A stretch of DNA of 64,000 nucleotides from a virus (taxonomy: Duplodnaviria > Heunggongvirae > Uroviricota > Caudoviricetes), in the IMG/VR virus record IMGVR_UViG_3300044259_000028, positions 18,283 through 82,282 of that record, one strand, 5' to 3'. A model generated the notes under the pieces. It had not been told where the DNA came from. It ran no database searches and worked only from the letters and a program-made list of their open reading frames with translations. The position numbers were made by a program, and so were the translations under genes. Positions 42,327-42,902 of this stretch are shown one piece after another (positions within the stretch are counted from its first letter, which is position 1; every line of letters begins with the position of its first letter).

Positions 42327-42379
42327 TGTATTTCTCCTTTTGGTTTACTCTTACGAGTGTGGTTTGTACTACTTAAATC

Positions 42380-42467
42380 TGGACTCACTTGGAGGTATCG
42401 AACCCCTTGACTTCCTTCCTCCTATTTAACGTCATCGGAATAGAAGGCCGATGGAGGGACAAGTGAG
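42380..42467 (-). ncRNA. tRNA-like element (88 nt) with perfect 7-bp acceptor stem, T-arm and 3' CCA but non-canonical core
   Basis: Minus-strand sequence CTCACTT...GGGGTTCGATACCTCC-AAGTGAG-T-CCA. Internal hairpin CATCGG-CCTTCTATT-CCGATG (possible anticodon TCT). D-arm not identifiable. Confidence 0.3.
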
Positions 42468-42902
42468 ATAATCTTCATAATTTAGAGAACAACAGCAAGC
42501 ACCTACGTATAAACATAAAGCATCATCCAAAGCTATCAAAATTTTGGCCGTAGTTTAAAGAAGATTTTATCATTAAACCGTCATCTTTGATAGAACAATT
42601 AGCTGGGTGGTATTTCTCTCAATATTTCTCCACTGCCTCAGCCTCAAGCTTTCACCTTCAAACTTTAATAAACAATCTACAAGCTTCAACGTATATTGTA
42701 AGAGTCGGAATCGAACCGACGTACATTCGCGTAAGAGGCAAATTGATATCCATTATCAGTTTTATGGTAAGCCCATATTTTCCGTCCTTGGGCTTGTTGG
42801 ACGAGATGATTTCTTGTTTTACTTACAGCATTCTCTAAATTATGAAGACTAAAGTAAGCTTTGGCATTCCGCTACTAACTTACTAAGGTCTTCATTATAC
42901 TA

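Follow-up and report, generated by a model that had tools for sequence, protein, structure and literature searches.

Does the gap between two open reading frames (ORFs) on the minus strand of a tailed virus hold genes for RNAs, or remnants of such genes? The question arose from a stretch of 64,000 nucleotides (from here on the window) of the IMG/VR record IMGVR_UViG_3300044259_000028, in which ORFs 41535-42326 and 42903-43526 bound a gap at positions 42327-42902. In this gap a first-pass annotation had noticed an 88-nt tRNA-like element with no recognizable D-arm and, apart from it, a second T-arm. Among the explanations that it offered were structurally divergent tRNAs and relics of an attachment site (att) or integration module. 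Inspection of the sequence from 42200 to 43000 showed that all sequence features it had listed are present where it had placed them. Comparison with related phages revealed that the gap harbours two real RNA genes, one for a D-armless tRNA-Arg and one, upstream of it, for a pseudoknotted RNA of ~385 nt. The product of ORF 41535-42326 is lipoprotein-like, with Band_7 in relatives.

A tRNA-Arg-Like Gene without a D-Arm

Read from 42467 to 42380 on the minus strand, the 88-nt element is CUCACUU-GU-CCCUCC-AUCGGC-CUUCUAU-UCCGAU-GACGUUAAAUAGGAGGAAGGAAGUCAA-GGGG-UUCGAUA-CCUC-C-AAGUGAG-U-CCA. Its 7-bp acceptor stem is flawless as had been claimed (CTCACTT 42467-42461 with AAGTGAG 42390-42384, then T and CCA at 42383-42380), and the T-arm GGGG-TTCGATA-CCTC(C) is present. 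An eighth acceptor pair, G42460-C42391, is possible and would give an 8-bp stem CUCACUUG/CAAGUGAG with a 4-bp T-stem. The hairpin CATCGG-CCTTCTATT-CCGATG was likewise found. The 9-nt loop ascribed to it does contain TCT, but reads better as a normal 7-nt anticodon loop, CUUCUAU, with a C31.U39 mismatch in the stem, because the arm (CGGC-CUUCUAU-UCCG) matches that of the canonical gene in relative L037 (GCGGC-UUUCUAU-UCCGC), to which the mismatch is common.

Thus read, the element has an acceptor stem with discriminator and CCA, a UUCGANY T-loop and, despite C31.U39, a 5-bp anticodon stem with a 7-nt loop, U33 and a purine at position 37. A canonical D-arm, i.e., 3-4 bp at 10-13/22-25 closing a GG-containing loop, is missing. 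ARAGORN was silent at this position and called no transfer-messenger RNA (tmRNA) in the window. Infernal searches with Rfam reported neither the element nor the second T-arm at the gathering score. The tRNA model RF00005 gave nothing for the element at E <= 10, and its best permissive Rfam match was tRNA-Sec with 18.1 bits against a gathering score of 47. The minimum free energy (MFE) fold of the element was not significant (z = -1.2).

Synteny and Distribution

Searches with megablast and blastn found no DNA-level relative of the gap among GenBank phages. With the L001 version of the gap as the query, the tRNA was the only part that matched. Pattern scans of metagenomes and genomes returned the L001 contig again or nothing, and the lipoprotein gene as a query led to zero related loci. 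Relatives were reached via the protein encoded upstream of the gap, which yielded IMG/VR loci L001-L004, L011 and L018 and, from a collection of 5.8 billion proteins, the encoding contigs L035-L043. In seven of these relatives (L001-L004, L011, L037, L041) ARAGORN and Rfam detected a canonical tRNA-Arg(TCT) downstream of the large RNA. The same slot is occupied in six others (L018, L035, L036, L038, L040, L043) by a D-armless form on which ARAGORN is silent.

A covariance model of the D-armless form, R1, was built from 20 members with the window sequence left out. This model matched the window at 42466-42381 on the minus strand with 30.4 bits (E = 1.2e-5 over 64 kb). No other match in the window was significant, the next being the tRNA-Gln of the window at E = 0.3. 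R1 failed to match the canonical tRNA-Arg genes of the relatives at E <= 0.01. Thus, the D-armless and the canonical gene are discrete alternatives. The absence of a recognizable D-arm is borne out by the Rfam alignment of the L018 copy, where 4 nt stand in place of 15 D-arm positions of the model, and by the spacing of 5-7 nt between acceptor and anticodon stem throughout the class.

From 5' to 3', members of the class are composed of a 7-bp acceptor stem, U8-A9, CC-N-N-A, a 5-bp anticodon stem with the loop CUUCUAA/C, AG-NN-N'N'-GUAA, one or two bases, GGAGUCAAU, a normal T-arm, the acceptor 3' strand, the discriminator and usually an encoded CCA. The linker UGGAGUCAAU is conserved, as are the anticodon loop and the T-loop UUCGAAU, and the T-stem of typical members has 5 bp. 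When the viral contigs of IMG/VR were scanned for the motif GGAGTCRATGNNNGTTCGA, 41 loci were obtained. They include ~25 distinct complete members of 79-80 nt in unrelated viral contigs, with perfect or near-perfect acceptor stems and, in most cases, an encoded CCA. R1 scored at least 79 bits at 36 loci.

A blastn search with one member against GenBank phages retrieved 13 records, none of which has an annotated feature under the match. The carriers include Limnohabitans phage DC31, the Pseudomonas phages PAK_P2, JG003 and phiPsa397, five P. putida phages, Salmonella SSBI34 and Listeria LPML1. In the tRNA cluster of phiPsa397 the element has tRNA-Trp and tRNA-Glu as its neighbours, and in PAK_P2 tRNA-Gln and tRNA-Lys; all GenBank copies with a checked context are inside tRNA clusters. 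ARAGORN misses the GenBank copies, and RF00005 passes typical members at 38.7-44.1 bits. Canonical Arg(TCT) was not found in the fetched stretches of four clusters with 11-18 tRNA genes (L053, L058, L062, L066), in which Arg(ACG) or Arg(CCT) may occur.

Two further R1 matches on which ARAGORN is silent share the architecture and have the loop CUACGAA with the arginine anticodon ACG (L053 14081-14160; L066 5134-5229, minus strand). The L066 copy carries a 17-nt insertion in its linker. The D-armless design is thus found with a second arginine anticodon. Anticodons other than UCU and ACG were not found in D-armless copies within 440 kb of tRNA-rich loci.

Genes for HNH homing endonucleases were noticed beside these RNAs at two loci. 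One (L043 3666-4235) lies next to the large RNA and parts it from its D-armless tRNA, and the other (L086 1589-1954) directly follows the PAK_P2 copy. Such insertions are in keeping with a role of these RNA genes as homing targets or hot spots.

Covariation in the D-Armless Class

A model with four helices (acceptor, stem X, anticodon and T) was tested on 23 sequences. They had been selected on the linker/T-arm motif and the acceptor stem and not on stem X or the anticodon stem. In these sequences 98.2% of the cells are paired, compared to 69.6% in shuffles, and double changes occur in 17 of 22 pairs. Covariation was very strong, with a score of 0.766 compared to 0.20 in shuffles and ~0.1 with slid partners. 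All seven acceptor pairs and all five pairs of the anticodon stem covary.

In stem X, U8-A9-(C10)-C11-N12-N13 pairs with N'-N'-G-U-A following the anticodon arm. N12 and N13 covary perfectly with their partners (GC 11, AU 6, UA 5; and CG 10, GC 9, AU 2, UG 2), and the stem X pairs 14-39 and 15-38 occur as three and four pair types, respectively. The long-range complementarity CCCTCC/GGAGG seen in the window thus proved to be a real helix, supported by covariation, in the place of the D-arm. In the predicted fold stem X replaces the D-arm, and the anticodon arm is nested within it.

The window copy aligned to R1 over its full length. Its stem X is bulged, U-C-(C)-C-U-C / G-A-G-G-A, and contains a compensatory change from A9-U of the class to C9-G. 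A 9-nt insertion precedes the 3' strand of stem X in this alignment. The copy shows the features that define the class, including an arginine anticodon with C35 (UCU). We conclude that the 88-nt element is no relic and belongs, as a divergent member, to a conserved class of D-armless tRNA-Arg(UCU). Of the two elements in the gap, it is the one to which the description as a structurally divergent tRNA applies; the second T-arm is a variable hairpin of the ~385-nt RNA.

The suggestion that the elements are relics of an att site or integration module, in the sense of pieces of tRNA that site-specific recombination left behind, found no support. The cores of att sites are often tRNA 3' halves, and a blastn search with the relatives' canonical tRNA matched the attP/tRNA-Lys region of HP1, though by generic tRNA similarity only. 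However, no integrase was seen among the six flanking ORFs scanned, and the neighbours are ordinary phage genes. Order and structure of the module are retained in 14 phages with compensatory substitutions in the stems, and the 88-nt element is a complete molecule rather than a fragment. An origin from an att site is therefore extremely improbable.

Proposed Function of the D-Armless tRNA

In our judgement the gap is probably a minus-strand module of a pseudoknotted RNA and a charged, AGA-decoding D-armless tRNA-Arg(UCU). Homology, synteny, architecture and covariation are demonstrated for this module; from them we infer transcription, processing, charging and decoding. For the D-armless element itself, a charged and decoding tRNA-Arg is the likely function. 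It is favoured by the synteny with canonical tRNA-Arg(UCU), the location in tRNA clusters and the conserved identity positions.

The module would be transcribed from the minus strand, with the promoter-like site at 42922-42894 as its probable promoter. As for any tRNA, RNase P and the 3'-processing enzymes of the host would release the tRNA. Because the tRNA of the window and of L037 starts 0-2 nt after helix P1 of the large RNA, the cut by RNase P would also define the 3' end of that RNA.

The identity set of E. coli arginyl-tRNA synthetase (ArgRS) consists of A20 in the D-loop, C35 and U36/G36. C35 is kept in both anticodons of the class, UCU and ACG, and the linker sequence UGGA is invariant. 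This linker could supply G18, G19 and A20, its GGA providing the elbow contacts of G18/G19 and the arginine identity element A20. The D-armless tRNA would then be charged by ArgRS and decode AGA (and AGG) for the phage. Of the arginine codons in 45 ORFs of the window, 11.4% are AGA and 4.6% AGG, together 16%. HisRS, EF-Tu and the ribosome of E. coli can work with an artificial tRNA from which the D-arm is missing (PMC11551756).

The conserved anticodon and acceptor features would also suit a tRNA mimic that is processed and does not decode, which speaks against a decoding tRNA. Such a mimic could act as a decoy or sponge for a host nuclease or modification enzyme directed at tRNA-Arg, or as a signal for RNase P/RNase Z that punctuates the transcript. 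The most conserved parts, the anticodon loop and the acceptor/T minihelix, are those recognized by nucleases and RNase P, and the missing D-arm might impede ArgRS, whose A20 determinant normally sits in the D-loop. The position directly behind the terminal helix of the large RNA, in the window and in L037, also fits a mimic; mascRNA follows MALAT1 in a similar way. However, in phiPsa397, PAK_P2 and many contigs the element is found among ordinary tRNA genes with no large RNA adjoining. Consequently, it must be more than a signal for the processing of that RNA. The syntenic replacement of canonical tRNA-Arg(UCU) likewise stands against a mimic, and two arginine anticodons, a retained UGGA linker and a usually encoded CCA suit charging better than a decoy. 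We regard a mimic as rather unlikely.

Several further observations weigh against a decoding D-armless tRNA. The mimicry of A20 and G18/G19 is deduced from a motif of 4 nt. Stem X is short; only three core pairs are supported, two of them by covariation, and the three pairs that do not covary, among them U8-A and A9-U, are invariant and thus unproven. MFE folding finds the core of stem X in only 6 of 20 members, and because of this weak thermodynamic support it is covariation that carries the helix. The absence of canonical tRNA-Arg(UCU) refers to the 64-kb window and to partial loci only. Finally, the window copy is the most divergent member of the class, with 30 bits compared to at least 79 for the others. 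Since it combines this divergence with the insertion, a T-stem of 4 bp and the C31.U39 mismatch, it is possibly under relaxed selection.

The same peculiarities, together with the score of 85 bits for the closest relative L035, could indicate that a class which is itself real is represented in the window by a decaying pseudogene. Random decay would, however, break stems, and all helices of the copy are intact despite extensive change: the acceptor stem pairs at 7-8 of 8 positions, stem X comprises 5 bp with the C9-G exchange and the T-stem has 4 bp. Anticodon loop CUUCUAU, T-loop and CCA are preserved, and the mismatch recurs in the canonical L037 gene. A pseudogene is therefore improbable.

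Comparison with Known tRNAs

Metazoan mitochondrial tRNA-Ser of the AGY/UCU types likewise lacks the D-arm and keeps acceptor, anticodon and T elements. A connector of 4-6 nt takes the place of the D-arm there; the elbow contacts no longer exist, and the translation apparatus has evolved along with these tRNAs (PMC7609411, PMC11551756). In contrast, the phage class has a covarying stem X, a canonical T-loop, a conserved GG-containing linker of 11-12 nt, arginine identity and a bacterial-phage setting. The short unpaired connector and the reduced or absent D/T elbow of the mitochondrial type were not found, the connector being paired as stem X.

The engineered mini HisT (Edelmann et al. 2024, PMC11551756) was obtained by deleting nucleotides 11-25, measures 62 nt and needed a pnp mutation for stability. 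It contains neither stem X nor the linker, whereas the phage class occurs naturally, is conserved and has members of 79-80 nt. Compared with the canonical phage tRNA-Arg(UCU), the D-armless form has the same slot, anticodon loop (CUUCUAC/U), T-loop and encoded CCA. The canonical gene differs in its normal D-arm GCUC-AGUGGAUA-GAGC and its short variable loop.

Non-standard cloverleaves of bacteria and phages are also known from tRNA-Sec and the allo-tRNAs (8/4 or 9/3, PMC5389517), and the window copy can be drawn as 8/4. These tRNAs retain a D-arm with a long stem and tetraloop as well as a true variable arm, and typical D-armless members are 7/5. The 8/4 tRNAs described in phages have D-arms (PMC5389517).

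Phages do not figure in a 2020 review of non-canonical natural tRNAs, which gives mitochondria as the only place where D-armless tRNAs occur (PMC7609411). A paper from 2024 states that bacteria are known to have only cloverleaf tRNAs and that armless tRNAs occur naturally in mitochondria alone (PMC11551756). Our literature search, the coverage of which was incomplete so that an earlier description is possible, turned up neither a D-armless phage tRNA nor the large RNA.

Tentatively, and with somewhat less than even confidence, we propose that natural, widespread, arginine-specific D-armless phage tRNAs work in bacterial cytosolic translation. Their D-stem would be rebuilt with a strand located behind the anticodon arm, and the D-loop determinants G18, G19 and A20 moved to the former variable region. 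The altered body may evade a host nuclease or modification directed at tRNA-Arg and yet be charged. A new pseudoknotted RNA would adjoin the tRNA, with diverged relatives perhaps in gaps of T5-like, rV5-like and Otagovirus phages. That the advantage of the D-armless body to the phage lies in the escape from a host factor reading the tRNA-Arg core is speculation.

If true, a D-armless arginine tRNA in many phages would overturn the cloverleaf-only statement for the bacterial cytosol. It would reveal the ways in which a rebuilt tRNA core is handled by ArgRS, RNase P, EF-Tu and the ribosome, and would offer synthetic biology a naturally evolved, orthogonal-looking scaffold. Cultured Pseudomonas phages carry the class, which makes it directly testable. 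Because standard annotation tools miss the class, the arginine part of phage tRNA repertoires and of codon-usage analyses has systematic gaps.

A Large Structured RNA Contains the Second T-Arm

The second perfect T-arm (GTCGG-TTCGATT-CCGAC) was confirmed at 42720-42704 on the minus strand. It had been described as lacking the rest of a tRNA. There is indeed no genuine tRNA at this place, but the T-arm is not isolated, as it is embedded in a larger conserved RNA (Table 1). Homologues of this RNA were detected by nhmmer profiles in all 14 members of the clade, and its helices were derived with RNAalifold and a helix scan. Outside the tRNA-like element, the DNA of the gap is conserved although the flanking protein is only 50-75% identical among these phages. 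Of the cells 97.6% are paired, double changes occur in 25 of 48 pairs, and the covariation score is 0.484, compared to ~0.09 with slid partners.

Table 1: Features of the gap 42327-42902 and its upstream border.
Feature	Positions	Strand	Basis
D-armless tRNA-Arg(UCU)-like gene, 88 nt including encoded CCA (42382-42380), discriminator U 42383	42380..42467	-	R1 match, synteny in 13 relatives
Acceptor 3' strand AAGUGAG, partner CUCACUU 42467-42461	42384..42390	-	Sequence; class covariation in 7/7 pairs
T-arm GGGG-UUCGAUA-CCUC	42392..42406	-	Sequence, R1 alignment
Linker A-GGAAGUCAA (class consensus A-U-GGAGUCAAU)	42407..42416	-	GGAGUC invariant in 20/20 class members
Anticodon arm UCGGC/UCCGA, C31.U39 mismatch, loop CUUCUAU, anticodon UCU 42444-42442	42433..42453	-	Sequence, R1 alignment
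Stem X 5' strand U-C-(C)-C-U-C-C, partner GGAGGA 42422-42417, enclosing the anticodon arm	42453..42459	-	Covariance model alignment
Large structured non-coding RNA, ~385 nt, from start of P1 5' strand to end of P1 3' strand	42469..42851	-	nhmmer, covariation
P3 5' strand AACUACG, partner CGUAGGU 42507-42501; crosses P2 and forms a second pseudoknot	42549..42555	-	Covariation
Hairpin 2 ("orphan T-arm") GUCGG-UUCGAUU-CCGAC	42704..42720	-	Sequence comparison
Hairpin 1 AUUUGC-CUCUUAC-GCGAAU, anticodon-arm-like; ARAGORN anticodon CTT	42725..42743	-	Folds in relatives
5' H-type pseudoknot: S1 CGUC 42803-42800 / GACG 42786-42783; S2 AAGCCCA 42795-42789 / UGGGCUU 42775-42769	42769..42803	-	S2 conserved
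P2 5' strand AUCAUCU, partner GGAUGAU 42528-42522	42804..42810	-	Double changes in 3/7 pairs, 99% paired
P1 5' strand, partner 42500-42469, 30-bp terminal helix	42821..42851	-	Double changes in 20/30 pairs
Sigma-70-like promoter TTGACG-17-TATAAT, 11/12 consensus matches, implied start ~42887	42894..42922	-	Consensus match only

The strand of the RNA is fixed by invariant G.U pairs in P1. In the 5' pseudoknot S1 is invariant, and S2 comprises 6-8 bp in all 14 sequences despite widely different bases. Variants of P3 are CUACG/CGUAG, CUUCC/GGAAG and CUGCA/UGCAG. Two hairpins are placed between the conserved blocks UAAUGGAUA and GUUGNAG. Hairpin 1 has a 5-6-bp stem and a 7-nt loop in 7 of 11 matched sequences, the loop often being CU-N-UU-A-N. 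Hairpin 2, the apparent T-arm, resembles a T-arm in no sequences but those of the window and of its closest relative L035, where AUGGG-UUCGAUU-CCCAU differs by two compensatory pairs. In most other members an unrelated, longer tetraloop hairpin is found instead. Hence the "orphan T-arm" is no gene of its own, but a hairpin of the large RNA that is peculiar to this lineage.

ARAGORN nevertheless called a tRNA-Lys(CTT) at 42696-42766, and the arrangement of the hairpin 1 loop CUCUUAC (7 nt), a 4-nt spacer and a perfect T-arm-like hairpin agrees with this call. Judged by eye, however, the acceptor pairs at only 4 of 7 positions, and the segment lies inside an RNA with covarying enclosing helices, in most relatives of which hairpin 2 has the tetraloop form. 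The call is a false positive, as neither L035 nor any other member shares it and the Rfam tRNA model is silent there at E up to 10. That the second T-arm belongs to a genuine tRNA-Lys is thus highly improbable.

Rfam gave no match to the large RNA in the gap at E <= 10, in four relatives at E <= 1 or in seven more distant loci at E <= 0.1. A group I intron was rejected, as Rfam gives no signal for one. A pairing UGUAAG/CUUACA around the T-arm-like hairpin was also discarded: UGUAAG belongs to the covarying P1, and the complement is missing in L035. With tmRNA the large RNA shares a similar size, a long helix of the 5' and 3' ends, a pseudoknot immediately 5' and more pseudoknotting near the 3' strand. 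Unlike tmRNA, it has no tRNA-like domain closing the helix and no conserved tag frame, and the Rfam tmRNA match is confined to the 18-nt T-arm; tmRNA was rejected for these reasons. In the alignment the reading frames after the pseudoknot vary in length and end among the relatives.

Large ornate RNAs such as ROOL and GOLLD (Weinberg et al. 2017) are highly structured, phage-associated and in many cases encoded beside tRNA genes (PMC12286853). The large RNA of the window shares these features. It is smaller and in tight synteny with one protein gene, and matched neither Rfam model. It would be an unclassified addition of ~385 nt to the short list of large structured phage RNAs. Our best guess, and a doubtful one, is a stable protein-binding scaffold which acts together with the protein of the upstream gene that always adjoins it.

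The central part of the large RNA (42560-42700, minus strand) contains repeated (A/G)AAAG-N-U(U/G) motifs, for example GAAGCU, UAAAGUU and GAAAGCU. Their positions are conserved across the clade and they are enriched in distant versions; they may be repeated protein-binding sites. A further hairpin, GAAGACCUUAGUAAG...CUUACUUUAGUCUUC (42844-42893, minus strand), just downstream of the promoter-like site, is specific to the window and missing in most relatives. It could compete with P1, because the first bases of the P1 5' strand are also part of its 3' strand.

Wider Distribution of the Large RNA and Its Neighbour Protein

In three more distant loci (L034, L084, L085) the same gene is followed by a gap with a terminal helix of 20-30 bp and an excess of AAAG. 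L085 also contains the pseudoknot motif CGUC...GACGGAAAA. An unannotated gap of 390-440 nt follows the phrog_1491 homologue in phiPsa374, Bitten, the T5-like SH9 and the rV5-like GAP31, and in GAP31 tRNA genes come directly after it. The SH9 gap has a terminal helix of ~30 nt and 11 AAAG compared to 3.2 expected; the GAP31 gap has a 19-bp helix and 8 compared to 2.5 expected. Profile and pairwise nhmmer searches gave a chain of weak similarities on the AAAG core (E 3e-5 to 6e-3 in a tiny search space) and 1e-17 for SH9 versus GAP31. These similarities suggest a possible homology between the large RNA of the window and the gaps of T5-like and rV5-like phages.

The ~380-nt interval of SH9, a Salmonella phage (L090 1934-2310), recurs with at least 90% identity in 440 T5-like GenBank records and is almost never annotated. 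If the weak link to these genomes holds, a large RNA has gone unnoticed in a classic group of model phages. Rfam found nothing in the SH9 interval, and blastn searches with the L084 and L085 versions against GenBank phages found nothing.

The upstream ORF 42903-43526 (minus strand) corresponds to phrog_1491, labelled "tail fiber protein" in PHROG and in GenBank. In 667 GenBank phages genes of this type are surrounded by early or replication-type genes, and a non-coding gap of ~300-450 nt always follows them. The AlphaFold model of the protein consists of long helical hairpins (predicted local distance difference test, pLDDT, 93.9). Nothing was found in Pfam above the cutoff, in the PDB by sequence, or in the PDB by Foldseek at E <= 0.001. 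The "tail fiber" label looks unsupported.

Genes for tmRNA were also noticed. L085, a T4-like contig, encodes a genuine permuted tmRNA at 155-357 (RF04321, 101.8 bits; ARAGORN tag ANESVFALAA) just upstream of the phrog_1491 homologue. In L062 and L075, ARAGORN also called a tmRNA with the tag GKNTLALAA among the clustered tRNA genes.

Other tRNA Genes

A 90-nt tRNA-Met/Ile2(CAU)-like gene lies at 43558-43647 on the minus strand of the window. It is homologous to genes of L035, L036 and L038 which ARAGORN calls tRNA-Met(cat), and a GAUC-GUAA-GAUC hairpin of ~10 nt with a GNRA loop is inserted in its D-loop. ARAGORN and Rfam (even at E <= 1) miss this gene.

ARAGORN further called long (80-92 nt) "tRNA-Ile(tat)" genes at L040 3526-3617, L053 14300-14379, L058 471-561, L062 1189-1268 and L071 1764-1852. 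Such genes often adjoin the D-armless tRNA-Arg in phage clusters and may be another non-standard type of phage tRNA. The tRNA-Gln(TTG) of the window at 743-817 (plus strand) scored 30.3 bits with Rfam against a gathering score of 29, and the neighbouring tRNA-Ile(GAT) 55.3. The tRNAs of the window phage are generally divergent.

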